A DNA stretch of 64,000 nucleotides from a virus (IMGVR_UViG_3300031853_000001:96001-160000), one strand, 5' to 3'. Numbered from the stretch's first letter, positions 10,386 through 31,489 are shown. Numbers and translations are program-made. The notes: a model not told the origin generated them from the sequence alone.

Positions 10386-10464
10386 GGACCGATAGCAGAA
10401 TTGGCATATGCACTGGTTTAAGGTACCAGGTTAAGTGTGGGTTCAAATCCCACTCGGTCTACCA
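10386..10464 (+). tRNA. tRNA-Leu(AAG), short variable arm
   Basis: CTGGT-TT AAG GT-ACCAG; ACCA. Confidence 0.85.
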
Positions 10465-18060: not shown

Positions 18061-18136
18061 AATTCTGCTATAATAATATTGTAAAAAAGAAAAGCCCTAG
18101 TCCAGGGCTGACCAAATGAAAAGGAGATTTAAAATT

Positions 18137-19756
18137 ATGACTAATTTCAATCAGGTAGTTTCTAATTTTGTTGCTTCTCAGAATTCTTACCCTGTTCGTA
18201 AGAATATTAGCAAGGCTCACGCTTCTTCCTTTATCAATGCGATGAAGCAAGAGGATAACTTCAAGTATACCGAAAATGGTGCGGTAGCCAAGAAGTCTAC
18301 TATGTCCAAGCTATACGACCTATTTGCACTTGGCGGCTCCTATCGTTCTCGCACCGAGAGCGATTGTATCGTTCTTTTTAAGAACGCATATCAGGAGAAC
18401 CCTGCCTATGCTCTAAAGTGCCTATGGTATCTTCGTGATATTCTTGAGGGTCAGGGTGAGCGTCGTTTCTTCCGTGTTTGCTTAAAGTGGCTTGCTACCT
18501 ACGACAAGCAGGCTGTACTACGCAACCTTGATACCATTGCCCGTGATGGTTTCGGCCGCTGGGATGATCTGTTTGTCCTATTTGACACTCCTTGCGAGGA
18601 TGCTGTTATGAAGCTGATTGAAAATCAGCTAGTTAGCGACCTAAAGGCGTATCAGGCCGGTGCCGCAGTATCTCTACTTGGCAAGTGGATTCCTTCCGAG
18701 AACTCCTCTTCTGCCAAGACTAAGCATAATGCTCGTCGCATTATTGCTGCTCTTCACGTATCTCCTCGTGAGTATCGTAAGACTCTATCTGCTCTGCGTG
18801 AGCGTATCCACGTTGTAGAGCGTCTTATGTCCCAGAACCGTTGGGACGAGATTGATTTCTCTCATCTACCTTCTCGTGCTGGCCTGATCTATCGCAAGGC
18901 TTTCGAGCGTCGCGATATGATTCAGCAGAAGTATCGTGAGTTCGCGAAGGATACTTCTACCAAGGTAAATGCTGGTAAGCTATATCCTTACGACGTTGTG
19001 CGTGAGGCACAGAAGGTTATGCACTGTGATTCCTACTGGAATTATGGTTCTCGCGAACCTCGCCTAGACGACACCCAGCGTCTAATGGTTAATAAGTATT
19101 GGGATAACCTACGTAATGTTTTCCCTGCGGGTGAAAACTTTAACGCTATGGTTGTTTGCGATACTTCTAGCTCTATGCTAAATGGAGCAAGCAATACTGC
19201 TTCTCCTATGCAGGTTGCGGTATCTCTGGCAATGTATGCCGCAGAGCGTGCCAACGGTCCTTTCAAGAACCATTATATCAGTTTCAGCCGTCAGGCTCGT
19301 CTGGTAGAGGTTTTTGGTGCGGACTTCTGCGACAAGGTATCTCGTATCATCCGCTCCAATGTGTGCGAGAATACCAATCTTGAAAGTGTTTTCGACCTAG
19401 TGCTAAATACTGCTATGCAGTATCGCCTACCTCGTAACGCTATGCCTAAGACTCTTGTAGTCGTGTCCGATATGGAAGTAGATCGTTCTGCGGGTATTTC
19501 CAGTCATAAGGAAACCTTTATGGAGTCTATGCGTCGTAAGTGGGCTCAGAAGTGCGGCAACCGCTATGAGTTCCCTGACGTAGTGTTCTGGAATGTGTCT
19601 GCTCGCAACGATACTTTCCTAGACGATCCTAAGAGTGGCATTACTTACGTGTCTGGCTGCAGTCCTGTACTGTTTGAGCAGATTCTGTCTGGTAAGACGT
19701 CTATTGACCTTATGCTAGACAAGCTTAACGCTCCTCGCTACAAAGACATCTACTAA
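18137..19756 (+). CDS. DUF2828-family helical-repeat + vWA protein (Ro60/TROVE-like architecture)
   Basis: TENGA..KST, LRDI..GQGERR, GRWDDL, LLGKWIPSE, LYPYDVV, MIDAS motif VCDTSSSM, VSDME, VFWNV. Own promoter; start at ATG 18137 after AAGGAG; strongly biased codons. Confidence 0.8.
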   Translation: MTNFNQVVSNFVASQNSYPVRKNISKAHASSFINAMKQEDNFKYTENGAVAKKSTMSKLYDLFALGGSYRSRTESDCIVLFKNAYQENPAYALKCLWYLRDILEGQGERRFFRVCLKWLATYDKQAVLRNLDTIARDGFGRWDDLFVLFDTPCEDAVMKLIENQLVSDLKAYQAGAAVSLLGKWIPSENSSSAKTKHNARRIIAALHVSPREYRKTLSALRERIHVVERLMSQNRWDEIDFSHLPSRAGLIYRKAFERRDMIQQKYREFAKDTSTKVNAGKLYPYDVVREAQKVMHCDSYWNYGSREPRLDDTQRLMVNKYWDNLRNVFPAGENFNAMVVCDTSSSMLNGASNTASPMQVAVSLAMYAAERANGPFKNHYISFSRQARLVEVFGADFCDKVSRIIRSNVCENTNLESVFDLVLNTAMQYRLPRNAMPKTLVVVSDMEVDRSAGISSHKETFMESMRRKWAQKCGNRYEFPDVVFWNVSARNDTFLDDPKSGITYVSGCSPVLFEQILSGKTSIDLMLDKLNAPRYKDIY

Positions 19757-19851
19757 GGTTAAGTATAAATTTGAGATGGAGAAATCCATCTCTTTTTTAT
19801 TTGACTTATTATAAAAATTTTGATATAATATTTATAGAAAGGATGAGGAAA

Positions 19852-20208
19852 ATGAACTATTACATTTATTTGGATGATGTGCGCGAAGATGATACTTGGT
19901 TTCGACAGCATTTGAATACCGAGCATTGGATTCCTTGTGTTGTTCGTTCTTATGAGGAAGTAATTCATATTCTTGACCATATGCAAGATTATATGGACAA
20001 GGATGAAGTGCTTATTCTCGACCTTGATCACGACCTTGGCGAAACTGAAGATGGTTACAATGAACTCGCGCACACAGGATATGATGTTTGTAAGTGGATG
20101 ATAGAAAATCATTTCCCTGCCTGCTATTTTCACATTCATAGCATGAACGCTAGTGGTTCTGCGAATATGCGACAACTTCTTACTCACTATGGCTATAAGG
20201 AGATTTAA
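19852..20208 (+). CDS. Cyclic-phosphate-processing receiver-like domain protein
   Basis: IYLDDVR...DLDHDLGE...TGYDVCKWM...IHSMNASG. Confidence 0.75.
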   Translation: MNYYIYLDDVREDDTWFRQHLNTEHWIPCVVRSYEEVIHILDHMQDYMDKDEVLILDLDHDLGETEDGYNELAHTGYDVCKWMIENHFPACYFHIHSMNASGSANMRQLLTHYGYKEI

Positions 20209-21319: not shown

Positions 21320-21544
21320 ATGAATGGATTTTATAAAGTAAAAGTTAATAATTATGGAGAAAAACCCGAAGAATGGTCTGGTGTTGTTGTGGGTAACGAT
21401 GAAGGTGACCTTATGAACAAGGTTATGAAATATTATGGTCACGATAATGTAGAACAAATAAGCTTTTGGTTTGGAGAATTTTATGATAATGATGTCGTAG
21501 AATTTGACGATTTTAAGGATTGTCCATTATTTGACTTTCACTAA
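21320..21544 (+). CDS. Hypothetical protein
   Basis: Coupled to the ligase gene. Confidence 0.55.
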   Translation: MNGFYKVKVNNYGEKPEEWSGVVVGNDEGDLMNKVMKYYGHDNVEQISFWFGEFYDNDVVEFDDFKDCPLFDFH

Positions 21545-21590
21545 AAATTTTGATATAATATTTATACAAGGTGAGGGAACTCACCAATAA

Positions 21591-21663
21591 TGCGGAGTGG
21601 CCAAGTAGTTAAGGCAATTGGCTCATACCCAATAGATCAAGAGTGCAAATCTCTTCTCCGCAA
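21591..21663 (+). tRNA. tRNA-Met/Ile2(CAT), no encoded CCA
   Basis: ATTGG-CT CAT AC-CCAAT; TGCGGAG/CTCCGCA; T-loop TGCAAAT. Confidence 0.8.
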
Positions 21664-21665
21664 CT

Positions 21666-22636
21666 CAGCGCAAAAGGAGAGCAAGCTGTTACTCCGAGTG
21701 AACTTATCGGCGCTATATAAATAGGAAAAACCAATTAAATACAGTATTTTAAATGAAGTAATAACTGCCATAGAAGTCATGACCTATGATAGAAGACACT
21801 TCATTTAAAGCAACCGGTTGATTTGCGCAATTAAGTCGTTAGAAGCGACTAGAGGGAGAGACCCTGACTAATAAGCAAGTCCATTCTATGAAATGGTAAT
21901 GTCGAAAACCAATTAGTGTAAAGTAGCATACCTTACCAATAATAAGGAGAATCAGCGTAGCGAACTGAATTGGCGTACTGGAATTTGTTGTCCAGAGTAG
22001 GCATAAATCGAGCAGCAATGCGGTAATACCCGTGCACAGGTAGCTAAATTACCCTGGCTCACCAATTATTTTAGAAGATAAGACTTGAGCTTATCTCTGG
22101 CTATGAAGCGAGTGCCGTGCCGCAGATGCGGTGCTTAGTGGAGCCTATGTGGGTTTAGCGTGTCAACCACAATGCGGATAGGTATTAACCGAAAGAAAAC
22201 ACGCTTTAATGGCGCTTTATCCCAAGCCTTTTCGCGGCGGCGCTATAAGTACCAAAAGGTATTATTTAATACTGAGCGTGAAACTAAGAGGGAACTGAAG
22301 GCTGTGCCAAGGTGAAAGGCTAACAGTCCGAGTGATGACCGTTGAAGCCATTCGGTGCATAGTGGTGCCGTTAAAGCGATGGATGCATACATCGTCCACT
22401 TCATTTAATGACTTGATGCTTATCAAGCTAGAACTATCGAGGACGTGTGCGGTGGGAATGTTTGAGATTAGATGTAGATAGTTTAAGTATAGACTTGCGG
22501 TGCAAGCCTAATCAACTGGCGTTCCGCGGCCAGAATACTTTGCGGGCTTTATTGATTCGGGAGGAAGTGTCCGTAGATGAACTTCTCGGAGTAATCGCCA
22601 TAATCGAATCAGCCGTGCGGCTGGCATAATGCCGCA
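21666..22636 (+). ncRNA. Large structured ncRNA region (GOLLD-like size and context; identity unverified)
   Basis: ~970 nt with raised GC, many hairpins and no credible ORF, flanked by tRNAs. Confidence 0.45.
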
Positions 22637-22640
22637 ATAT

Positions 22641-22760
22641 GGCACCGTAGTGCAAAGGTAAGCACGCCGGCCTTTGTGAGATAGGGTAAAGTGCAGTTCA
22701 ACTCTGCCGTCTCGCACCACAAGCCGGTGATGCTGGGTTCAAGTCCCGCCGGTGCTTCCA
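22641..22760 (+). tRNA. tRNA-Glu(TTC) interrupted at 35/36 by a 44-nt mini-tRNA (22676-22719)
   Basis: GGCACCG/CGGTGCT acceptor, D arm, CCGGC-CTTT|insert|CAA-GCCGG. Removing the insert gives CT TTC AA. Confidence 0.8.
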
Positions 22761-22763
22761 AGC

Positions 22764-22832
22764 AAAGAAAAGAGAAGCATAAATCTGATCAATTTATGAG
22801 ATAATGATGCCCTAACATCAAGTCTTTTCTTT
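22764..22832 (+). promoter_or_regulatory. Homing-endonuclease leader motif, copy C
   Basis: AAAGAAAAGA/TCTTTTCTTT; AGC; hairpin; GAGATAAT; GATG-CCCTAA-CATC. Loop pairs with TTAGGG (22844-22849). Confidence 0.7.
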
Positions 22833-22856
22833 AATAAATATTATTAGGGTGATATT

Positions 22857-23498
22857 ATGAGTAGAAAATTAAGCCAACAACAATTTGAAGAAAGAGTATA
22901 TAAGACATTTGGAGATAAATATTCTGTAGTAAGTGAATATTTAGGTCAAAGAAAACCTATAACTTTACATTGTAATATACACAATATTGATTTTACAGCT
23001 ACTGCTGAATGTTTCATGAGACAAGCTAATGACACTCGCTCAAGTTGTCCAGAATGTACTGCAGAAAAACGAAGACAAGAAAATAATTCTGTAAAATGTG
23101 AATGTGCTTATTGTCATAAAATTTTTTATTTGTCTCAATCTAAAGCTAATAATTCTAAAAGTGGATTACATTTTTGTTGTAGAGAACATAAAGATTTAGC
23201 TCAAAGAATAGATAGCGGTGAACAATTCGATATAATGCGCCCGCCTCATTATAATGCAATAAAAAATGATACAGGAACAATTGGGACATATCGTATTTTA
23301 GCTTTTAGAAATTATCCCCATAAGTGCGCTGTTTGTAATTGGGACGAAGATGAAGATATATTACAAGTTCATCATATAGATGAAAATAGACAAAATAATT
23401 CTTTAACCAATTTAATTATTTTATGTCCTAATTGTCACGCAAAAATAACTTATGGGAAATATAAATTAATTGATCGAAAACAAATTATATTAAAATAA
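22857..23498 (+). CDS. HNH homing endonuclease
   Basis: CAVC...LQVHHIDENRQNN...LCPNCH. Confidence 0.9.
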   Translation: MSRKLSQQQFEERVYKTFGDKYSVVSEYLGQRKPITLHCNIHNIDFTATAECFMRQANDTRSSCPECTAEKRRQENNSVKCECAYCHKIFYLSQSKANNSKSGLHFCCREHKDLAQRIDSGEQFDIMRPPHYNAIKNDTGTIGTYRILAFRNYPHKCAVCNWDEDEDILQVHHIDENRQNNSLTNLIILCPNCHAKITYGKYKLIDRKQIILK

Positions 23499-23520
23499 AA
23501 TTAAATAGGAGTTGTTGTAT

Positions 23521-23995
23521 ATGGCAATCCACGATAGAGCTTATACTCGTACAAAAAGTTGGACTAAGGCACTTCGTAAATACCACATTGATAGAGATAT
23601 TTCCGCAGGTAAATGGTGGCCTATGTACAATAATCTCCATCAATATGCTGATAATAAAATTCATTGTTCCTGTCCAATGTGTAGTGCTAAAACCAACAAC
23701 AAAAAGCGCAATGGGCCTCGTGGATGGGAACCTTCAAAAAATTGGTCTATTTCAGATCAAAAGAAAATTAATAGTATGGAAAGTCAAGTTGAGGAATTAA
23801 ATGATAACTTGGAATAATTTTAAATGTGATTTTCCGTATCATCGTATAGATAATTTTGGCGATTATAGTGAAATGTGGTGCGGACGATTAGAAAAATATA
23901 TTTCTAATTGTAATGATTGCCCATTTAACCAAAAAGAAAAAGAGATGCGTGAAGACCCCAATAATTATCAAAAATGGCTAAAATTACATAATTGA
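23521..23995 (+). CDS. Two small Cys-containing hypothetical ORFs (23521-23817, 23801-23995)
   Basis: RBS present; CSCPMC motif in the first. Confidence 0.55.
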
Positions 23996-24329
23996 CTTTT
24001 TCTAAAAATTATAGTATAATATATATAGTTAAGGGAAAGGAGATAAATTATTTATGAATTATCTGGATGATTTTCTTGTTGGCCCGCAGAGCGATGAATA
24101 TGATTGGTATTATGAAAATGAAATTCCTGATCCAGAATGGGACAGGAGATGTCGAGGATTGGATAAACTAATACTTGACAAGTAATAAAAATTATGTTAT
24201 AATATTTATAGAAACAAGGAAAGGATGATAATTGTGCGCTTTACGACTCGCAAGTCTCGTACTGTGTTTTCTTCTTCTTGGAGTCGCCGCAAGCAGGCAG
24301 AGATGCTTGATGAGTGGCAGATTTAAACG

Positions 24330-24865
24330 CCAGATTAGTTCAGCAAATTGCGGCCAATATTAATGGCGTTACCGCATTCCTTACTTATAGTTTGGAAGTA
24401 CAAAGGTTTTGAGTAATTGAACCGGTTAAATCAATGCTTGGCGCCGGGTCCACCCTACTGGGCTCGTAAACAAATCGCGGCCAATGGTGAGAAGCGCCAC
24501 CGCTATAAAGGAATGCCCCACGACGGGTTTCGTAAGTTATGTTGAAAGATATATACTAGCTTGGAATAAGCACACGCAAGAGTTGCTATAATGCGCAACA
24601 GAAAAATCCTTTATAATAGGTTAACCTACGGTCGGATGGGAGACGATAAACCCCTTTCAAGCAGTCTCTTTGGCGGTTGGACTTAAAATAAACCACCTAG
24701 GTCAGCAGGACTGATAACTATATATTATAGAAGCAATCTCTTTTATAATATATAGAAAACGCAGCCATAATCCTGTCGTTGCGGCGAACAACGATAAAAA
24801 TCGCTAGTAGCCCAGATACTTACTTAAAGGGTTTTCGCCGCGTTAATCTTGGTATCGGATTGCGG
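24330..24865 (+). ncRNA. Cluster of structured non-coding RNAs
   Basis: GCATTCCTT/AAGGAATGC long-range stem, long AT hairpin ~24718-24755, pseudoknots; no ORF. Confidence 0.45.
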
Positions 24866-24871
24866 TTGTAT

Positions 24872-25006
24872 CCACGCGTGGTGCAAATGGCGAGACACAG
24901 CGGACTTACGTAGGCCCAGTGGCTTGTTGGAGAGCAACACTCCTTCCTACGACCAAAATCCGCGACGCAAGATACATTGCTGGTTCAAATCCAGTCGCGT
25001 GGACCA
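24872..25006 (+). tRNA. tRNA-Leu(TAA) interrupted at 35/36 by a 47-nt mini-tRNA (24909-24955)
   Basis: CCACGCG/CGCGTGG-ACCA; GCGGA-CTTA|insert|AAA-TCCGC; long variable arm. Removing the insert gives CT TAA AA. Confidence 0.85.
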
Positions 25007-25009
25007 TAT

Positions 25010-25086
25010 GAGTTTGTAACCGAATTGGCATAGGTACTTGGCTCAAACCCAAGGTTTTGTGGGTTCGACTCCCACCAAACTCACCA
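25010..25086 (+). tRNA. tRNA-Leu(CAA), short variable arm
   Basis: CTTGG-CT CAA AC-CCAAG; ACCA. Confidence 0.9.
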
Positions 25087-25154
25087 AAATTTATATTTCG
25101 AGTGCGAATTATAATAATTTGAATTCGATGTTATTACTTATCTAATGTAAGGAG

Positions 25155-25925
25155 GTGGTTAATATGCCACTAAAATATAAATTAGAAGAAGTATTAACAG
25201 AAAATTCTCCTGTTACTAGAAAAGTTTTAAAAGATTATTTAGCAAAATATAATGTTTTAGAATATAAATGTGCAATATGCGATAACAGAGGAGAATGGAA
25301 TGGAGTTTCTTTAACATTACAAATAGACCATATTAATGGTATAAGAGATGATAATAGAAAAGAAAATCTTCGTTGGCTATGCCCGAATTGTCATTCTCAA
25401 ACTGATACTTTTACTGGGAAAAATAAAACTAAAAAAGAAGTTGTTAATTTTACAGTAGAAGAAGCTATTAAAGCATTACAACAAACTGAAAATGTAAATC
25501 AAGCAACCAAATTAATCGGCTGTGCGCAAGGTGGAGCAAATTGGATTAGAGTAAATGATATTAAAAAAAAGTATGGAATTATTCAATCTGGGGATTTAAA
25601 GAAAGAAGAAAAACAAAAGTTTAAAGAAAATCATATTAATGCGAAACCAATTAACTCTATTAAATTATGTAAAAAATGCGGCCGTCCGTTATCGACAAAA
25701 GATGCTGAATACTGTCAAACTTGTATACACGAATTTCAACGAAAATGTGAATGGCCTTCTCGCGAAGAACTTAAAAAATTAATTCGCTCTACACCTTTTT
25801 TACAAATAGGTAAAAAATATAATGTAAGCGATAATGCTGTAAGAAAATGGTGCTTAAATTATGGTTTGCCATCTAAAAAGATGGAAATAAAAGCAATTTC
25901 AGATGAAGATTGGAATAATATTTGA
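25155..25925 (+). CDS. HNH homing endonuclease with C-terminal HTH
   Basis: CAIC...LQIDHING..DNRKENLRWLCPNCH. Confidence 0.9.
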   Translation: MVNMPLKYKLEEVLTENSPVTRKVLKDYLAKYNVLEYKCAICDNRGEWNGVSLTLQIDHINGIRDDNRKENLRWLCPNCHSQTDTFTGKNKTKKEVVNFTVEEAIKALQQTENVNQATKLIGCAQGGANWIRVNDIKKKYGIIQSGDLKKEEKQKFKENHINAKPINSIKLCKKCGRPLSTKDAEYCQTCIHEFQRKCEWPSREELKKLIRSTPFLQIGKKYNVSDNAVRKWCLNYGLPSKKMEIKAISDEDWNNI

Positions 25926-26189: not shown

Positions 26190-26227
26190 CTTTTAGCAGA
26201 AAATCTGCTATAATAAATATGTAAGAA

Positions 26228-26298
26228 CGACGGTAGCAGCAGTTTTAATAATAAATATTTTTAATGTAAAAATCCTTATTAGCAAAAATTCCGTCGTG
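26228..26298 (+). ncRNA. Variant ACAGCAA-type element (GCAGCAG)
   Basis: ACGACGG-TA-GCAGCAG ... CCGTCGT-G; first element after promoter 26186. Confidence 0.5.
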
Positions 26299-26311
26299 CT
26301 GATTGAAATTA

Positions 26312-26379
26312 AGGCGGACACAGCAAATAACTATTTAAGCAATAATCTTTTAAATTATGTAGCTAAAATAACCGCCTAG
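26312..26379 (+). ncRNA. ACAGCAA-stem element 3 carrying a Lys(TTT)-like anticodon stem-loop
   Basis: AGGCGG..ACAGCAA ... ATAAT-CTTTTAA-ATTAT ... CCGCCT-AG. Confidence 0.7.
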
Positions 26380-26386
26380 AATTTAT

Positions 26387-26464
26387 GTGCCCGTGGCGCA
26401 ACTTGGCAGACGCGCTACACTTAGGATGTAGATTTTCAGAGTTCAAATCTCTGCGGGCGCACCA
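26387..26464 (+). tRNA. tRNA-Leu(TAG), short variable arm
   Basis: CTACA-CT TAG GA-TGTAG; ACCA. Confidence 0.9.
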
Positions 26465-26672
26465 GTCACTCCTCGCTAATGCGACAAGTCGCGTTAACAT
26501 TTGTTTGTTAGCTACTGTTGGAAAACGCGACTTTAAAATACAAAGAAGCAACAGTAAATAGCTCAAACCGTATGTTGAGACTATCGTAACTATCACATTC
26601 TAGGAGTCCTGACTCGTTATTGGACTTAATACTCAACGGAGTTGGCGCCCAAACAAATCCTAGAATGTATAT

Positions 26673-26725
26673 GGTATCAAGTGAAGAGCCTTCTCGTGGC
26701 GATACTGATTTCGACTAATCTTCAC
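26673..26725 (+). ncRNA. Minimal HDV-like (theta-type) self-cleaving ribozyme
   Basis: P1 GGTATC/GATACT, P2 GTGAAGA/TCTTCAC, P3 GCC/GGC, L3 TTCTCGT, P1.1 TC/GA, J4/2 CTAA. Confidence 0.8.
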
Positions 26726-27120
26726 AAAATATTAAAGCGTGCTTTTCCTTGCTGTACACTTGTTGAAAAGCCAAATGTTCCCGTATGAGAATACGCAGGT
26801 TATACCTGTATATTGAAATCCCATAAGACGTCACAAAGGAATGGATAGAAATTACAATGGGCCATTCAGAAAGTAGAACACTTTAATATTTGACTTTTTC
26901 TGAAAATTCTGGTATAATAATTACAGAAACAAGGAAAGGACAAAATAATGAAGATACTTGTTGTAAATAAAGATGAGAAAATACAATTAATTCATCTCCT
27001 AAAACAAGAAATACGCAAACCTGGTTGTCCTTATGAATTACTTACTATTTTAGAAAAACTTAGTCCTGGAGACTATGAATATCTTTTTACAACTATGAAA
27101 TAAAAGAAAGGAAGTAGATA

Positions 27121-27690
27121 CTCCATTTAATAAAATGGTTGAACCAAGTGAAGAAGAGTTAACCACTCTGCTTGGGCTATCTAAATAACAGCCATACGAT
27201 TTAGCGGGATACTACTAAATCGCGGCCACGAAATCAGTAATGATTAGTGATAAGGAGAAACTCTTAATGTTAAGGATAGGCGCTTGGTTATTCGCTAACA
27301 AAAACTTGGCTCCTTGCGGCGTCGTAATAGAAAGCAGATTGAGCAGATTTGCCGAACCCAGAAAAGACTTTAAGGTGGCAGTTAAAGGGACTCTGGGAAA
27401 GCCATAAGACGTTTGGTGTCGTTGAAACCTAGAAATAGGATATAAGCAAGGTTCACAGATAAAGTAGCCTAAAACGACAATGATTCTAATAAGTAATTTA
27501 ATTAGAATAATGTGCTGAATGGTTTAGGTGAAATTTGGGAGTAATCAGTCTCCCCGTTGCTAGCCAAAAGGCAGGATGAAGAAGTTAAAGGGTCGCTACC
27601 TTTGGCTCAGCCTTCATCTTCAACGTGGTTGAATATGTTAGAAGGATAATACAAGTACGGCGAAGGTCGCAACGGTTTTATTAAATGGGG
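27121..27690 (+). ncRNA. ~570-nt large ornate ncRNA (ROOL-like)
   Basis: 21-nt terminal helix CTCCATTTAATAAAATGGTTG / CAACGGTTTTATTAAATGGGG, many internal stems, no ORF. Size and tRNA context fit ROOL. Confidence 0.6.
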
Positions 27691-27700
27691 TATTTGCCCT

Positions 27701-27768
27701 AGACTTTAAGGTAGCATTGGAGTAATTAACCAATGAGACAAAGATGCTCCTACATCGGCTTAAAGTTT
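27701..27768 (+). promoter_or_regulatory. Homing-endonuclease leader motif, copy D
   Basis: AGACTTTAAG/CTTAAAGTTT; AGC; hairpin; GAGACAAA; GATG-CTCCTA-CATC. Loop pairs with TAGGAG (27781-27786). Confidence 0.7.
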
Positions 27769-27795
27769 AAAATATAATCATAGGAGTGATTTAAT

Positions 27796-28356
27796 ATGCC
27801 AAGGAAAATTGATTTAACAGGAAAAATTTTTGGAATCATACAGGTAGATTCGCCAGCACCAAGTCAATCTGGTAAAACGTATTGGAATTGTCATTGTACA
27901 ATTTGTAATACTAAAAAAGTAATTCAAGGTTGCGCCTTAAAAAATGGTTCTATTAAAACTTGCGGTTGTGGTTGTTCTTTTCATAAACAAAATACTTCAA
28001 AAATTTGTGAAATTTGTGGAAAAGAATTTATTCCAATAAAATTTGGCGGTGCTAGAAAATATTGTTATGAATGTTCTCCGCAAGAAGGCTCAGAAACAGA
28101 TAAGCGCACAGTTATAAGACGAGCTTTAAAAAAGATGCTAGTTGATTATAAAGGTGGAAAATGTGAACGATGTGGATATAATAAATGTTTACGCGCATTA
28201 GAATTTCATCATTTAAATCCGTCTGAAAAAGATTTTGGAATTTCTGGATGTATAACTAAAAATGTAGAAGAATTAAAAAATGAAGTTAATAAATGTATTT
28301 TAGTTTGTTCTAATTGTCACGCGGAAATTCATGAAGAATTAGACGAGGCCCGTTAG
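27796..28356 (+). CDS. HNH homing endonuclease; stop codon lies inside tRNA-Asn
   Basis: CERCG...ALEFHHL...CILVCSNCH. Confidence 0.85.
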   Translation: MPRKIDLTGKIFGIIQVDSPAPSQSGKTYWNCHCTICNTKKVIQGCALKNGSIKTCGCGCSFHKQNTSKICEICGKEFIPIKFGGARKYCYECSPQEGSETDKRTVIRRALKKMLVDYKGGKCERCGYNKCLRALEFHHLNPSEKDFGISGCITKNVEELKNEVNKCILVCSNCHAEIHEELDEAR

Positions 28357-28423
28357 TCCAGTTGGCAGAACGATAGACTGTTAATCTATGTCAGCGCTGG
28401 TTCAAGTCCAGCACGGGCCGCCA
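28347..28423 (+). tRNA. tRNA-Asn(GTT)
   Basis: ATAGA-CT GTT AA-TCTAT; GCCA. Confidence 0.9.
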
Positions 28424-28703
28424 TAGTCACATAGAGGACTTATTCTCTATGCTTGCTCAACGTCCCACTTATGTGAACGCGCGAAGTCACATAAGAGAGT
28501 CAACCCTTCCGAAGTACGAAGGAACCCCTAAAATGGTCTGTGGGGATAAGCGGTGTCATGAACCGCCTAATGTAGCTGGCAAAGAGCATAGGTTCGTTAG
28601 GCTCCTAAGAAAAGCCTATCACCATCACGATAGCAAATAAGTGAATAAACGGATACGCGGTTAGCTGACCTTAAAGCTATTCTAATCTAGAGGAGAATAA
28701 AAT

Positions 28704-29243
28704 ATGAGTGACGTAAGACTAAAAATTTTACCTCCATGGACAGTAACAATTCGTAAGTTTGAGGCACTATTTGACGGTGACCCACAAATTGCTTGTAATT
28801 GTAATTTCTCAGGTTCTAATCCTTCTATTGTACTAGCTTGTAATAATGGTGATAAGGTTGCTGCTCTACAGCAGATTCTTCCTTCTGAAGTTGGCTTTGG
28901 CAATATTAAGCTAAAGGTCGCGGTTGATGGTGTTCCTTCTAATCGTACTTTCAAGAGTAAGGTTGAACTATTTGACACGGCTTTCAAGGGGAATCCAGCA
29001 TACGCTTATTCTGCATGTCCTGCTGAGGAAGGTTATCAGTGGATTGGGACTACTTATGTTGTATTTAATAACTGTGTAGTGCAGTTCGCGGCGGACAATC
29101 TAAATGATTGCCATGGTATTATTAGCACCCTATATGAAACTATCGCAAGCGAACTTCTAACTGGCCCCGCTACTGATGGTGTATTTTATAATACAAATGT
29201 AGAACGTGCTGGGCTTGGTCTTTCGCTAGGAGAATGGCCATAA
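28704..29243 (+). CDS. Conserved-looking hypothetical protein
   Basis: Strong RBS GAGGAG; biased codons. Confidence 0.7.
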   Translation: MSDVRLKILPPWTVTIRKFEALFDGDPQIACNCNFSGSNPSIVLACNNGDKVAALQQILPSEVGFGNIKLKVAVDGVPSNRTFKSKVELFDTAFKGNPAYAYSACPAEEGYQWIGTTYVVFNNCVVQFAADNLNDCHGIISTLYETIASELLTGPATDGVFYNTNVERAGLGLSLGEWP

Positions 29244-29245
29244 AA

Positions 29246-29443
29246 GATAAGTTCACTGGGCTCTTCTAAAGTCCAGTACCAAAGCCGAATGTCACATAAA
29301 GTTAACGACGGTGCGGTATGAAAAGACCACGCTGTAGTGGCACGGGCAGAGCTAATCCGGCAAGGAAAGCGGCGGTTAAAGTGAAATCGCGACGCGGAAA
29401 GAGAAAGAATAACAACCAGTGATGGGTCGAAAGACGTCTTATC
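29246..29443 (+). ncRNA. ~200-nt structured ncRNA of unknown class
   Basis: GATAAG/CTTATC and CACTGG/CCAGTG enclosing helices; GNRA loops; GC-rich. Confidence 0.5.
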
Positions 29444-29464
29444 AGTTTTCTCGGTCACTTTTAT

Positions 29465-29538
29465 AGTCCGTTAGTTTAACAGTAAAATATAACCCTGTCA
29501 CGGTTAAGTTACGAGGGCAGCACTCGTACGGACTGCCA
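29465..29538 (+). tRNA. tRNA-Asp(GTC), non-canonical elbow
   Basis: TAACC-CT GTC AC-GGTTA; T-loop GGCAGCA; GCCA. Confidence 0.85.
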
Positions 29539-29657
29539 TAGACTCAAACAGCAATATTTTACTTGCATGTGGGGCCGGAAGTATTGGTTTAACTCCAGTT
29601 CTCTCCACCACATGGAGAGATAGTGTAACGATAGCACGCCGTATAGTATGAGTCTAG
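29539..29657 (+). ncRNA. ACAGCAA-stem element 4 containing a circularly permuted tRNA
   Basis: TAGACTCA/TGAGTCTA stem; T arm ATTGG-TTTAACT-CCAGT, TCTCTCC-ACCA, CAT linker, GGAGAGA, D arm GTGT-AACGATA-GCAC. Confidence 0.8.
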
Positions 29658-29662
29658 TATAT

Positions 29663-30215
29663 CGGGTTGTAGCGCAGTTTGGTAGCGCGCCTCGCTTGGG
29701 AAAAGCGATTTGTGCTTAATTATTATGTTAGACATTACTCAACAAAAAGGAACGATTACAGAATTACGATGTATTTTAGATTTAACTAATTTGGGAATAC
29801 GATGTTTAGTTCCTGTAGATGAAAGTTCTAAATATGATGTAGTAGCAGATTTAAATGGTACTTTTATTAGAATTCAATGTAAAACAGCTTGTTGGGCTAA
29901 AGATACCGTTCAAGAAAAAGTAGCCTTTGAAATAGATACTTGTCGAAGTACAACAAATACTAAAACTACTACTCATTATAAGTATTCTGCTAATGAAATT
30001 GATTATTTTTATACATGGTTTGAAGGACAAGGTTACTTAGTCTCCATTAAAGAAGCAAAAGGTTTAACTTTTAGATGGCGATATGAATATCCTTCTACCA
30101 ATCAAAAACAAGGTATTCATATCGCAGAATTATATAAGACTGAGGAGGTTTTAAAAGCACTCTAAAATTTTCCTGGACGAGGAGGCCGCAGGTTCAAATC
30201 CTGCCTGCCCGACCA
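29663..30215 (+). tRNA. tRNA-Pro(TGG) split by a ~476-nt endonuclease-coding insertion (29699-30174 in the 35/36 register)
   Basis: 5' half CGGGTTG..CCTCG-CTTG; 3' half GGA-CGAGG..GGTTCAAATCC..CCCG-ACCA. Confidence 0.85.
29725..30165 (+). CDS. PD-(D/E)XK homing endonuclease (I-Ssp6803I-like family)
   Basis: KGTITE...YDVVAD...RIQCKT...Y...EIDYF. Confidence 0.8.
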   Translation: MLDITQQKGTITELRCILDLTNLGIRCLVPVDESSKYDVVADLNGTFIRIQCKTACWAKDTVQEKVAFEIDTCRSTTNTKTTTHYKYSANEIDYFYTWFEGQGYLVSIKEAKGLTFRWRYEYPSTNQKQGIHIAELYKTEEVLKAL

Positions 30216-30326
30216 TAATCAACTGGGTTTGAAGGTTATCCCATTTGAAAAACCTTCCCCTTTCTTTCTTGACTTTTTCTAAAAATTTTGATATAATAAA
30301 TATATCAAAGGAAAGGAAATAAAAAG

Positions 30327-30554
30327 ATGGATAAGAAAGAACTTTCTACTAATGCGGCAAAAGCAGAATTTGTAAAGTCTATTCATAATTGGCTTATGCG
30401 AACTTTAGAGCAAAACAATAAATCTGAATATAAAGATTGTTTTACTGTTGAAGGTTCTAGTATTATGTGCCAACTGCCGCAAGACTACTTTAATTCATGT
30501 AGTATTCCAGCGAACACTAAGATTGAAATGAAGTTTATTTCTAAGAAATCATAA
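30327..30554 (+). CDS. Hypothetical protein
   Basis: Own promoter and RBS. Confidence 0.6.
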   Translation: MDKKELSTNAAKAEFVKSIHNWLMRTLEQNNKSEYKDCFTVEGSSIMCQLPQDYFNSCSIPANTKIEMKFISKKS

Positions 30555-30558
30555 CTAA

Positions 30559-30651
30559 TAAGCCTTTACTGCAATTACTTAAATGGTTAAATTATTTTGC
30601 TTGAATACAAAATGAGAGAAGGTTCGAGCCCTTCACAATTAAAAGGCTTAG
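30559..30651 (+). ncRNA. ACTGCAA-stem element 5: tRNA-like body in normal order, with the element stem in place of the acceptor end
   Basis: TAAGCCTTT/AAAGGCTTA; D-loop-like AAATGGTTAA; ATTTTG-CTTGAATA-CAAAAT; GAAGG-TTCGAGC-CCTTC. Confidence 0.7.
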
Positions 30652-30666
30652 CAAAGTTAGAAACTA

Positions 30667-30733
30667 AAGGCACAAGCAGCAACAAGACGTTTTAATAATT
30701 TGATAGTGGATTAAATTTATTGAGTGTGCCTTG
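30667..30733 (+). ncRNA. GCAGCAA-stem element 6
   Basis: AAGGCACA-A-GCAGCAA ... TGTGCCTT-G with an internal hairpin. Confidence 0.65.
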
Positions 30734-30741
30734 ATTATTAA

Positions 30742-30818
30742 GTCGGTTTAGCTTAGCTGGTTAAAGCACTCGCCTTGTAAGCGAGAGACCTTCGGTCCGA
30801 ATCCGAAAACCGGCTCCA
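30742..30818 (+). tRNA. tRNA-Thr(TGT)
   Basis: CTCGC-CT TGT AA-GCGAG; TCCA. Confidence 0.9.
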
Positions 30819-30839
30819 TCTAAAAGAAGGAGTATTAAA

Positions 30840-31286
30840 ATGGGACTTTTTAATCGGTCTAAAAAAGAGCCTACAAAACAATATATTCCACCTGAGCAGC
30901 CTAAAAAATGCGAGCATAAATTTCAAGATTTTCCTTGGTATATAGAAGGAGAAGAAAATGAAGGTAATGTATATGGTTGTAACTCTTGGTATCATCTAGT
31001 AATTAAAGAACCTTATGTTTGTATTTATTGTGGCGAAAGATATGATAAAATATTGTGGGAAATAAGACGATATGGCTCTCATAAAGAAGCAATGCAGGCT
31101 CTAGATGATGTTAATGAAAAATTTAAAGACCGAATAAGACATCGCGCAGAAATTGAAGATATGATAAATGATATGCAATTAGTCGATCCTCAATATTTAC
31201 AATATTATCATATGCTTCAGGGAACAAAAGACCCATCTACTTCTCGATTATATGAGCAAGAAATTAAACCAAAATTAAAAACTTAA
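30840..31286 (+). CDS. Hypothetical protein
   Basis: RBS AAGGAG; CEH and CIYC motifs. Confidence 0.6.
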   Translation: MGLFNRSKKEPTKQYIPPEQPKKCEHKFQDFPWYIEGEENEGNVYGCNSWYHLVIKEPYVCIYCGERYDKILWEIRRYGSHKEAMQALDDVNEKFKDRIRHRAEIEDMINDMQLVDPQYLQYYHMLQGTKDPSTSRLYEQEIKPKLKT

Positions 31287-31289
31287 TTT

Positions 31290-31409
31290 TATGCGGTCAC
31301 AGCAATTTTAGATTTAATCTAAGTGTCATCGGTTCGATTCCGATTATTCCAGCCATTTAATTTGGAGTGTAGCTCAATTGGTAGAGCATTAGAATTATAA
31401 ACCGCATAG
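31290..31409 (+). ncRNA. ACAGCAA-stem element 7 containing a circularly permuted tRNA opened at the anticodon loop
   Basis: TATGCGGT/ACCGCATA; TCTAA-GTGTC-ATCGG TTCGATT CCGAT-TATTCCA-GCCA; linker; TGGAGTG-TA-GCTC AATTGGTA GAGC-A-TTAGA. Confidence 0.85.
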
Positions 31410-31420
31410 TACGATATTTA

Positions 31421-31489
31421 AGACGCTTACAGCAATTTAATACAGTCGCACACATAAATAATTACATGACTAAGTAATAGAGCGTCGCG
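31421..31489 (+). ncRNA. ACAGCAA-stem element 8
   Basis: GACGCT-T-ACAGCAA ... AGCGTC. Confidence 0.6.

Follow-up and report, generated by a model that had tools for sequence, protein, structure and literature searches.

Miniature tRNA-shaped inserts in the anticodons of two phage tRNA genes: candidate introns of a tRNA-mimicking class

To our knowledge, protein-dependent tRNA splicing is regarded as archaeal and eukaryotic, and the established introns of bacteria and phages are self-splicing ones only. The closest described counterparts of the inserts considered here are the 'enigmatic' tRNA introns of Lak megaphages, published in 2019 (Devoto et al. 2019, Nat Microbiol, PMC6784885; Fig. 4, Table S6). 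One of them was described as 'a possible tRNA', with no rule or mechanism being proposed (PMC6784885). The Lak introns are prior art for the observation of tRNA-like introns in phage tRNAs, and the initial annotation of the present locus, which spoke of a candidate new tRNA-splicing system, is preceded by them in this respect. As to the proposed mechanism, a full-text search of the literature found no paper that proposes or tests splicing of phage tRNA introns by RNase P and a ligase.

Two tRNA genes interrupted within the anticodon

The genome of a 181-kb uncultured phage contains two tRNA genes that are interrupted within the anticodon by small inserts. Both are located in the window, that is, the whole stretch of 64,000 nucleotides that was analysed (positions without prefix refer to it). 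With introns allowed (-i), ARAGORN places a tRNA-Glu(UUC) at 22641-22760 with an insert of 44 nt and a tRNA-Leu(UAA) at 24872-25006 with an insert of 47 nt; the anticodons printed in this mode (Val CAC and Leu CAA, respectively) are in the wrong register, and in default mode both genes are passed over. The Rfam tRNA model covers 22641-22757 with 44.8 bits. The two genes consist of the following parts.

22641..22675, + strand: tRNA-Glu(UUC) 5' exon with acceptor, D arm, 5' anticodon stem and loop bases CTTT (32-35); ARAGORN -i, Rfam tRNA model, L026:9638
22676..22719, + strand: 44-nt tRNA-shaped candidate intron of the Glu gene; geometry, fold, absence from L026 in the same flanks, recurrence in 5 contigs
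22720..22760, + strand: tRNA-Glu(UUC) 3' exon with loop bases CAA (36-38), 3' anticodon stem, T arm, acceptor and encoded CCA; ARAGORN, L026 orthologue
24872..24908, + strand: tRNA-Leu(UAA) 5' exon of a body with long variable arm, ending in loop bases CTTA; ARAGORN -i, L011:14363
24909..24955, + strand: 47-nt tRNA-shaped candidate intron of the Leu gene, junction possibly one base leftward; geometry, same insert in L006:2892 and L105
24956..25006, + strand: tRNA-Leu(UAA) 3' exon with AAA, 3' anticodon stem, long variable arm, T arm, acceptor and encoded CCA; ARAGORN, orthologue comparison

The mature loops, CTTTCAA for Glu and CTTAAAA for Leu, follow from uninterrupted orthologues in related phage contigs, namely a tRNA-Glu(ttc) at L026:9638, whose alignment with the Glu exons scores 65 of a maximum of 69, and a tRNA-Leu(taa) at L011:14363. 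Because the L026 loop reads CTTTCAA, the Glu junction is unique, between CTTT and CAA at position 35/36, with the insert at 22676-22719. For Leu, one A can be assigned to either side, which allows a junction at 34/35 or at 35/36; with 24909-24955, the insert begins at the stem and finishes with CCA. Removal of each insert from its first acceptor base through CCA, as initially suggested, thus yields exactly the loops of the orthologues. The absence of an intact gene for either anticodon, first noted for the window, extends to the whole 180,932-bp genome, in which ARAGORN finds no uninterrupted Glu(UUC) or Leu(UAA) gene. An assembly artefact is ruled out for the inserts: in 5 further contigs, which come from different samples, the Glu insert is found near-invariant, and two contigs contain the Leu insert, identical in a different Leu body (L006:2892) and present also in L105.

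Both inserts are composed of the same succession of elements.

22676-22682, + strand: Glu insert, acceptor 5' strand
22683-22691, + strand: Glu insert, linker, D-arm remnant TAGGGTAAAG
22692-22708, + strand: Glu insert, T stem and loop (TTCAACT)
22709-22715, + strand: Glu insert, acceptor 3' strand
22716-22719, + strand: Glu insert, tail ACCA
24909-24915, + strand: Leu insert, acceptor 5' strand
24916-24927, + strand: Leu insert, linker
24928-24944, + strand: Leu insert, T-like stem and loop (AGCAACA)
24945-24951, + strand: Leu insert, acceptor 3' strand
24952-24955, + strand: Leu insert, tail ACCA

The Glu insert forms 7 of 7 acceptor pairs and 4 of 5 T-stem pairs, which was equalled by 1 of 2000 shuffles, and its minimum free energy hairpin has -15.8 kcal/mol (z = -3.0). 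For the Leu insert the values are 6 of 7 and 4 of 5 pairs (equalled by 7 of 2000 shuffles). The description of the inserts as miniature tRNAs, built of acceptor and T arms plus NCCA and common in architecture but different in sequence, agrees with this geometry: a gap-free stack of a 7-bp acceptor stem and a 5-bp T stem with a 7-nt T loop is present in both, as are the discriminator and CCA at the 3' end (ACCA). For the Leu insert a T arm is indeed present, but it is weaker than had been implied, with two central mismatches and a non-TTC loop. A non-TTC T loop (GGCAGCA) is, however, also carried by a tRNA-Asp-like gene that stands alone in this phage (29465-29535). The D arm and anticodon arm needed for decoding are missing, and ARAGORN reports no tRNA when given the 44- and 47-nt inserts. 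Judged from sequence, both inserts show the geometry of a bacterial RNase P substrate, an acceptor/T-arm stack with a 3' RCCA, for which cleavage would be expected 5' of base +1. As stated from the outset, they are too small for group I or group II ribozymes and no bulge-helix-bulge (two 3-nt bulges with a 4-bp helix between them) is formed in the predicted precursor folds; in these, the anticodon stem is followed by an internal loop that is asymmetric, with 4 nt in the 5' strand and 7 nt in the 3' strand, and then by the insert helix.

Inserts in related phages, their conservation and mobility

Using the DUF2828/DUF7788 gene as a marker to fetch relatives, we surveyed 1.56 Mb of related phage DNA, which contains 18 inserts in 14 sequence families from at least 12 phage records. 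In all 18, the first base is base 1 of a 7-bp acceptor-like stem, and this stem is directly stacked on a second one of 5 bp, whose loop has 7 nt (consensus T-K-C-R-A-N-N); shuffled inserts attain the acceptor/T-arm geometry 0-7 times per 2000. The register is unambiguous in 13 of the 18. The position within the outer loop varies (32/33, 34/35 or 35/36) and the inner ends are fixed, which indicates that the cut sites are set by the inner tRNA shape. The restored anticodon loop is always exactly 7 nt long, with U33 and a purine at 37. Homologous inserts had been expected to conserve fold, CCA and register. The acceptor/T-arm fold is found throughout; position 35/36, in contrast, does not hold as a rule, the constant being the start at inner base +1, and CCA is not universal. 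NCCA is the 3' tail in 9 of the 14 families (the L008 copy of the insert ends in GCCA), the others having ACTA, GCAA, AA, AT or T. Such non-CCA tails are restricted to phages in which 15-29% of the tRNA genes encode CCA, versus 60-100% elsewhere (Fisher p = 0.03), and the tail type of an insert follows the phage's own tRNA 3'-end habit.

Some of the related introns are longer. According to ARAGORN, the intron of an Ile gene (L008:3366) is a whole tRNA(CUA) and that of a Gln gene (L048:5959) is tRNA-Tyr-like (Tyr GUA). Together the introns form a decay series from whole tRNAs over broken anticodon arms to inserts of 44-50 nt with acceptor and T arms and D-arm remnants. On the main reading evaluated below, each insert would be a tRNA gene that sits within the anticodon of a second one and has degenerated to acceptor and T arms plus NCCA. 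The hosts of 12 of the 14 intron families are U34 tRNAs, compared to a background of 45% (p = 0.002). The nearest cultured phages by DUF2828 protein (39% identity), Bacillus phages FADO, PBC2 and Thrax1, have 55 tRNAs beside the DUF2828 gene and zero introns, and a blastn search of the region against the phage collection returned only a T5-like tRNA-Leu similarity, to the neighbouring gene; a tractable carrier in culture was not found.

Intron conservation equals exon conservation, whereas the flanks diverge. Comparison of homologous introns reveals six compensatory double changes in the inner stems, and nine more are found in the outer stems of the Asn and Thr pairs, one outer T-stem pair of the Thr pair losing its pairing. 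The Lys pair adds further compensatory changes, with its outer T-stem comparison off register, and intron-bearing Glu alleles show additional variants of the outer anticodon stem (C-G, T-A and T.G). These patterns indicate that inner and outer RNA are both under selection for pairing while nested. The inserts are also mobile at the DNA level, and plus and minus alleles exist; the Glu insert, for example, is missing from L026 within the same flanks. Exon co-conversion holds for Leu, where a GCGGA/TCCGC anticodon stem is restricted to two intron-bearing alleles with different bodies, and fails for Glu, where L003 and L104 have the intron together with the anticodon-stem variant of the allele that lacks it. 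Two free-standing homing-type endonuclease genes lie close to the interrupted genes.

22857..23498, + strand: HNH homing endonuclease, 97 nt downstream of tRNA-Glu; PF01844
25155..25925, + strand: second HNH endonuclease, downstream of the tRNA-Leu pair; PF13392/PF01844

The HNH gene at 22857-23498 is a possible driver of insert mobility. By tblastn across the related loci it is found in this genome alone, and other intron-bearing alleles have a different HNH gene nearby, or none. A gene of the orf27796 type precedes both the intron-less Asn gene of the window and the intron-bearing Asn gene of L017. Strict pairing in the sense of 'collaborative homing' is not supported, as the association of HNH genes and introns is inconsistent across relatives.

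A possible route of removal and its alternatives

Our main reading takes both inserts for genuine introns of tRNA genes that form a class of their own, mimicking tRNA, and has them removed by enzymes of tRNA maturation, with a joint probability of about 0.45. The 5' splice site, inner base +1, would be cleaved by host RNase P, so that the 5' exon ends in a 3'-OH; behind the inner tail, an RNase Z-like endonuclease of tRNA 3'-end maturation would act and give the 3' exon a 5'-P; and an ATP-dependent RNA ligase would close the nick in the anticodon loop while the outer cloverleaf holds the halves together. This mechanism is coherent but unproven, and we consider it the most likely route at the RNA level. 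RNase P and RNase Z measure the 12-layer acceptor/T-arm helix, the minimal RNase P substrate is the acceptor/T-arm module, and their products (3'-OH and 5'-P, respectively) need no end healing before an Rnl-type ligase; the chemistry as initially proposed, with an ATP ligase joining these ends, is hence self-consistent. The obvious candidate for sealing would be the phage's own Rnl2-like enzyme, located in the following module.

18116..19756, + strand: DUF2828/DUF7788 vWA protein (TROVE/Ro-like), first gene of the module; Pfam, 64 related loci
19771..20208, + strand: cRec (cyclic-phosphate-processing receiver) domain protein of the RNA-repair module; PF20274, 67.4 bits
20668..21318, + strand: ATP-dependent RNA ligase, 216 aa, distantly Rnl2-like, candidate sealing enzyme with a putative link to the introns; PF09414

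The assignment of this gene as a phage RNA ligase was borne out by PF09414 (66.6 bits versus a cut-off of 27) and by its similarity to the T4 Rnl2 structures 1s68/2hvq (E about 1e-7, N-terminal domain only). The equivalog level of TIGR02307 is not reached (37.4 bits, far under the cut-off of 197), and the C-terminal domain of T4 Rnl2 is absent, leaving the nucleotidyltransferase domain only. Its proximity, however, is no specific evidence for splicing as had been supposed. The ligase sits in a TROVE-like/cRec/ligase module, and such modules in phages are predicted to function in RNA repair (Iyer et al. 2021, PMC7824862). RNA-ligase-family matches are found in 5 of 5 further intron-bearing genomes and likewise in 28 of another 34 related records, the majority of which showed no tRNA-shaped intron in the parts scanned. 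The ligase is a member of a generic phage RNA-repair kit, and its co-occurrence with introns is uninformative.

The main reading is favoured by the independently fixed junctions, the constant inner geometry at variable loop positions, the decay series, the compensatory changes, the conservation of the introns and the tail types described above. Three more observations concern the route via RNase P, an RNase Z-like enzyme and a ligase. What the shortest inserts retain matches the minimal RNase P substrate; the 3'-OH/5'-P ends would suit an Rnl-type ligase, and this phage (G000) carries the ligase but no RNase Z-like or CCA-adding gene of its own; and the relatives with no RNA-ligase match, G027 (complete) and G013 (89% complete), have 61 tRNAs and no tRNA-shaped intron, these being two genomes only. 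Other points count against it. In Bacillus-type bacteria, CCA blocks RNase Z and exonucleases finish CCA-encoding precursors, and the 3' exon would therefore have no defined 5' end. We know of a cut exactly after CCA for few RNase Z enzymes only, for example that of Thermotoga. The nearest cultured relatives infect Bacillus. The 4-nt length of the tails ACTA and GCAA suggests a ruler rather than recognition of CCA, and the tails AA, AT and T are not all compatible with a cut directly after the discriminator. For introns of the Lak type, RNase P would leave the extra 5' hairpin on the 5' exon. We also count against the route that the ligase family is near-universal in this phage group, with or without introns seen, and that the ligase here has a nucleotidyltransferase domain only.

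A further objection is that cRec and a Pnkp-like kinase suit 2',3'-cyclic-phosphate/5'-OH ends, the product of a different kind of nuclease. The corresponding alternative, which we regard as unlikely, assumes that a metal-independent endonuclease of phage or host reads the tRNA-like fold and leaves such ends, which cRec and the kinase/phosphatase heal and the Rnl2-like ligase seals, or which host RtcB seals directly; it amounts to the T4 repair pathway used for splicing. In its favour, the cRec gene adjoins the ligase and is predicted to open cyclic phosphates (PMC7824862), and the same genome has a Pnkp-like kinase (300-aa AAA_33 kinase ORF, G000:74904-75305). RNase P and RNase Z alone leave the 4-nt tails ACTA and GCAA and the Lak 5' hairpin unaccounted for, and a second type of interruption (ACAGCAA motif) together with a permuted tRNA in the same genome hints at a dedicated processing activity. 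Against this, the Pfam scan of 30 island ORFs yields no RNA endonuclease that would be a candidate, and the 5' junction at inner base +1 and the exact retention of acceptor and T arm fit the needs of RNase P; we know of no meaning that these features would have for anticodon-type nucleases.

Less probable still is that no splicing takes place. The nested element would then be what the gene makes (tRNA, decoy in the form of a CCA-minihelix, or tRNA-like partner of the TROVE/Ro-like protein), or it would act at the DNA level only and shield the gene from neighbouring homing endonucleases, with the outer tRNA sacrificed or halved in either case. Some long introns do resemble working tRNAs (CUA, Tyr-GUA), cellular TROVE proteins act with tRNA-like RNAs (PMC7824862), many of these tRNAs are flanked by homing endonuclease genes, and Glu and Leu tRNAs could be supplied by the host. 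Yet many compensatory changes keep the outer cloverleaf stems paired in intron-bearing lineages, removal of the insert restores, without exception, a loop of exactly 7 nt with U33 and purine 37, the interrupted genes are the phage's sole Glu(UUC) and Leu(UAA) genes, the mini inserts have lost all that a decoding tRNA needs, and HNH linkage is inconsistent.

It is highly improbable that the inserts act as ribozymes of very small size, self-cleaving or self-splicing. They occupy the classical site of bacterial self-splicing tRNA introns, and some tRNAs of related contigs do contain group I-like introns (174-264 nt; L036:2715, L068:7803 and L068:8490). At 44 and 47 nt, however, the inserts match no Rfam ribozyme or intron model, including Intron_gpI, at gathering threshold, nor is there a match with E<=1 over 21500-25200; covariance models of small self-cleaving ribozymes (hammerhead, twister, pistol, hatchet, HDV-like) do not match the inserts either, and what the families have in common is a fold, with no catalytic core conserved among them. 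The reading as hairpins that arose by chance, or by faulty assembly, in tRNA pseudogenes undergoing decay, for which only the general frequency of tRNA pseudogenes in phage islands speaks, is already contradicted by the same inserts in independent assemblies, a geometry far beyond shuffles, covariation and clean insertion alleles within identical flanks.

Implications and comparison with known systems

If RNase P, a 3' endonuclease and a ligase remove the inserts, this would be a new splicing pathway built from housekeeping enzymes. Any tRNA-shaped insertion could then be a tolerated intron wherever an anticodon-loop ligase is present, phage RNA ligases would have a constitutive task beyond damage repair, and the 'enigmatic' Lak introns would have an explanation, too. 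A broader proposition, to which we assign a lower probability than to the main reading and which is hence tentative, is that bacterial RNase P, an RNase Z-like cut and a phage ATP ligase constitute a third way of tRNA splicing beside self-splicing and bulge-helix-bulge introns, with nested-gene origin and decay included. A tRNA gene would have become nested in the anticodon of another and decayed to a minimal processing signal; possibly, an anticodon nuclease made the cut into which a ligase inserted a mature tRNA with a CCA end, the product then being copied back into DNA. Key U34 tRNAs would depend on the phage ligase, with a CCA-minihelix released as by-product. Because tRNA finders miss or misname such genes, the decoding capacity of large phages is under-counted. 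The rule that an insert runs from inner base +1 to the end of its tail, while its place in the loop varies, is simple and thereby suited to searches and in vitro tests.

Among known systems, the Lak introns are likewise short non-ribozyme inserts in anticodon loops of phage tRNAs, strongly conserved in sequence across samples, with insert-plus and insert-minus alleles and with an acceptor stem and T arm near the 3' junction, ending 1-3 nt before it. They differ in their length (80-115 nt versus 44 and 47 nt), in an extra 5' hairpin (ACA... start) and an A-rich linker, both missing from the window inserts, so that the 5' junction is not at inner base +1, in the lack of a CCA tail and in a site after base 36. 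The archaeal and eukaryal bulge-helix-bulge introns (EndA/TSEN, RtcB or Trl1) are also small, located in the region of the anticodon loop with the exon halves held by the tRNA body, and are removed by proteins and sealed by a ligase, as proposed for the window inserts. Their recognition element is the bulge-helix-bulge, however, and not a tRNA minihelix with an asymmetric 4-nt/7-nt junction loop, and EndA/TSEN chemistry yields cyclic-phosphate/5'-OH ends, unlike the proposed 3'-OH/5'-P. We know of no EndA/TSEN-type splicing endonuclease family in bacteria or phages, and no such Pfam family is found among the 30 island ORFs. Group I introns, classically in tRNA-Leu(UAA), share the type of host gene and the site, and are mobile and often linked to homing endonucleases; unlike the window inserts they are ribozymes of 170-300 nt with a conserved core (P3-P8).

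Glu, Lys, Gln and Leu-UAA tRNAs are typical targets of anticodon nucleases. In T4 repair, where the PrrC cut is countered by Pnkp and Rnl1, a phage ligase likewise seals an anticodon-loop break in an intact tRNA, and this phage has the same gene kit as the modules of Iyer et al. 2021 (PMC7824862). There a damaged mature tRNA is restored, whereas here the break would be programmed by the gene insert. Permuted and split tRNA genes (Cyanidioschyzon, Nanoarchaeum) are comparable in requiring cutting and ligation in the anticodon region, and differ in their bulge-helix-bulge recognition; a permuted tRNA gene is present in the same window (31292-31408). Finally, MALAT1 mascRNA, the t-elements of plant mitochondria and the bacterial Y RNA YrlA harbor an acceptor/T-arm mimic within a longer RNA, and such a mimic suffices to recruit tRNA end-processing enzymes in a non-tRNA context. 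In these cases the flanks are not rejoined, whereas the outer tRNA of the window inserts would need rejoining.

The tRNA island and its two interrupted genes

The window covers bases 96001-160000 of a virus contig of 180,932 bp. The default mode of ARAGORN reports 20 window tRNAs but misses two genes that are called when introns are allowed; the Rfam tRNA model also spans 22641-22757 of the first. The tRNA island includes:

22098-22209, drum RNA
22641-22760, interrupted tRNA-Glu(UUC) with a 44-nt insert
24872-25006, interrupted tRNA-Leu(UAA) with a 47-nt insert
27120-27688, ROOL RNA

The registers chosen by ARAGORN (Val CAC for the Glu gene, Leu CAA for the Leu gene) are wrong, as orthologues fix other loops. 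Related contigs were fetched via the ligase, a DNA pattern, and the DUF2828 protein, and the exons were compared with 531 distinct uninterrupted tRNAs. The Glu exons match an uninterrupted tRNA-Glu(ttc) with loop CTTTCAA on a related contig (L026:9638; alignment score 65 of 69 possible), whose flanks are shared by the intron-bearing allele of L016, resulting in a clean presence/absence pair. The uninterrupted orthologue of the Leu gene, tRNA-Leu(taa) at L011:14363, has the loop CTTAAAA. Given these loops, the Glu insert (22676-22719) has a unique cut between CTTT and CAA, confirming the position 35/36 assigned by the initial annotation. For Leu the assigned loop is upheld, but the cut is ambiguous, falling between CTTA and AAA or between CTT and AAAA. 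The claim that no intact Glu(UUC) or Leu(UAA) gene accompanies the interrupted ones is borne out for the whole genome.

The window and L006 carry the identical 47-nt Leu insert, along with a GCGGA/TCCGC anticodon stem, in Leu bodies that differ from each other, and the intron-less counterparts in L011 and L016 both have a GCAGA/TCTGC stem. Judged from these alleles, insert and stem look like a case of co-conversion. No such stem-intron linkage is seen among Glu alleles. Homing endonuclease genes crowd the tRNA island; a consistent pairing of homing endonucleases with introns was not found.

The window has further features of note. A tRNA-Asp(GUC)-like gene (29465-29535; Rfam 45.8 bits) is missed by ARAGORN, and its T loop is GGCAGCA rather than TTCRANN, the same unusual type of loop that the Leu introns carry. 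The tRNA-Leu genes 25010-25086, 10386-10464, and 26387-26464 (anticodons CAA, AAG, and TAG, respectively) are only 77-79 nt long with a short variable region; the first is 81-84% identical to the tRNA-Leu found in T5-like and Aeromonas phages. Conserved non-coding blocks located 5' of tRNA-Leu (24190-24320, 24440-24504, 24772-24869), common to many relatives and without an Rfam match, may represent a leader or a novel structured RNA.

tRNA-shaped inserts across the phage group

ARAGORN -i, applied to 84 loci and the genome (1.56 Mb), returned 798 tRNA calls, 63 of them interrupted (43 distinct). The interruptions are of three kinds: tRNA-shaped, a hairpin + GTGACAGCAAT located 5' of the anticodon, and group I-like (174-264 nt). 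The first kind comprises 18 sequences in 14 families, counts that are lower bounds because intron-bearing tRNA-Glu copies in L003 (5441-5560) and L104 (reverse strand) escaped ARAGORN -i and were found only by DNA pattern.

For the geometry, the mature loop was set from orthologues before the insert start was located. In 18 of 18 inserts a permitted register, unique in 13, makes the first base of the insert also the first base of a 7-bp stem, and a 5-bp stem closing a 7-nt loop directly precedes the 3' strand of that stem without a gap. The T-like loops are TTCAACT, AGCAACA, GGCAGCA, TGCAAGA, TTCAAAT, TGCAATA, TTCGTAA, and similar; shuffled inserts equalled the pair counts 0-7 times in 2000. 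The acceptor/T-arm fold of the initial annotation holds throughout, but the 35/36 site given there is incidental, since inserts also occur at 34/35 and 32/33 (L015 Leu). Likewise, the proposed CCA end is present as NCCA in 9 families, the remaining tails being ACTA, GCAA, AA, AT, and T. The invariant is an insert that starts at inner base +1 and runs through the inner tail.

Several evolutionary patterns speak for a function of the inserts. Between homologous introns (Asn L011/L017, Thr L030/L074, Lys L009/L030) the inner stems carry six compensatory double changes; the inner T arm of L009 Lys is poorly formed (3 of 5 pairs). In the Asn and Thr pairs, nine such changes lie in outer stems, and one Thr T-stem pair loses pairing. 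The Lys pair adds further outer changes, but there the outer T stems were compared out of register. Intron-bearing Glu alleles differ in two pairs of the outer anticodon stem, which read C-G, T-A, or T.G, while their intron varies at two sites only, and tRNA and intron are conserved far above the flanks.

When excised, two long introns are called complete tRNAs by ARAGORN: the 76-nt Ile intron of L008:3366-3518 as an amber-suppressor type tRNA(CUA) nested in Ile(UAU), and the 86-nt Gln intron of L048:5959-6116 as tRNA-Tyr(GUA) nested in Gln(UUG). Each transcript may therefore give two tRNAs. Other inserts have broken anticodon loops, and inserts of 44-50 nt retain only the acceptor and T arms and a TAGNNTAAAG D-arm remnant. 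Selection has preserved the portion read by tRNA end-processing enzymes, while the decoding portions decayed.

The ARAGORN -i locus set also holds 14 distinct tRNA(CUA) genes among relatives (e.g. L085:17555, L094:370), and one RNA-ligase-like ORF is broken by TAG (related genome G028), which suggests that some phages of the group read through or recode amber codons.

Further interruptions and rearranged tRNAs

Other unusual tRNA genes are:

L033, L034, L035, L036, L037, L051, L052, L066, L067, L069, L070, L080: hairpin, then GTGACAGCAAT-like sequence, just 5' of the anticodon
L036:2715-2981, L068:7803-8116, L068:8490-8840: group I-like anticodon-loop inserts, assigned by size and sequence motifs
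31292-31408 (window): circularly permuted tRNA gene
L015:6648-6757 (= L009:4995-5104): tRNA-like gene with an aberrant anticodon loop

The hairpin type matches no Rfam family and shares an ACAGCAA motif with stem-closed cassettes of the window (26227-31486). If the 174-264-nt inserts are truly group I, three intron types coexist in the phage group. The permuted gene consists, in this order, of a closing stem ATGCGGT/ACCGCAT, the motif CACAGCAA, a 3' half that terminates in GCCA, a spacer of 7 nt, and the 5' half; once the two halves are exchanged in silico, ARAGORN recognizes canonical acceptor, D, and T arms. To mature, this tRNA would likewise have to be ligated in the anticodon region. The L015 gene has two T-arm-like hairpins, GGACG-TTCGATT-CGTCT and TGGG-TTCGATT-CCCA.

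By DUF2828 protein, the nearest cultured phages are Bacillus phages of 142-169 kb. The three fetched (FADO, PBC2, Thrax1) have the tRNA island followed by DUF2828, as in the window, and no tRNA introns. The host is probably a member of the Bacillota.

Candidate splicing route and published precedent

Cleavage by RNase P before base +1 gives the upstream fragment a 3'-OH, cleavage by RNase Z-type enzymes gives the downstream fragment a 5'-P, and these are precisely the ends that Rnl-type ligases connect; nicks in anticodon loops are sealed by T4 Rnl1. The insert anatomy fits this established enzymology. In the proposed route, RNase P would cut at inner base +1, leaving a 3'-OH on the 5' exon, an RNase Z-like enzyme would cut after the inner tail, leaving a 5'-P on the 3' exon, and the phage Rnl-type ligase would join both ends in the anticodon loop. 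The phage encodes a PF09414 ligase, and its genome no RNase Z-like or CCA-adding enzyme; the nucleases would therefore be those of the host. We tentatively assign the full route a probability of about 45%. In its favour, non-CCA tails are confined to phages that seldom encode CCA in their own tRNA genes, and two ligase-negative relatives have 61 tRNAs and no tRNA-shaped introns. Against it, cleavage exactly behind CCA is not typical of bacterial RNase Z, the tails ACTA and GCAA point to a 4-nt ruler, and the ligase family is almost universal across the phage group and belongs to a TROVE-like/cRec/ligase module.

Such modules were interpreted as RNA repair by Iyer et al. (PMC7824862). Outside the window, an AAA_33 P-loop kinase domain (G000:C1:74904-75305, the phage's own genome) lies in an ORF of 300 aa, as large as T4 Pnkp; it would complete, with cRec and ligase, a heal-and-seal RNA-repair kit. 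Cyclic-phosphate chemistry is therefore equally serviceable, and splicing by another nuclease, whose cyclic-phosphate ends would suit the repair module and kinase, is a rather unlikely alternative to the RNase P route. That the inserts are not spliced at all is improbable.

Devoto et al. 2019 (PMC6784885) described "enigmatic", highly conserved introns in tRNAs of Lak megaphages and remarked that one "may encode a tRNA". The paper offered no splicing mechanism, and full-text literature searches revealed none in later work. Four A1/A2 intron types of its Table S6 each end in an acceptor/T-arm module, as here; unlike the window inserts, these four have an additional 5' hairpin and linker and lack CCA. 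The tRNA-shaped inserts are variations of an already published type; the splicing mechanism, if true, would be new.
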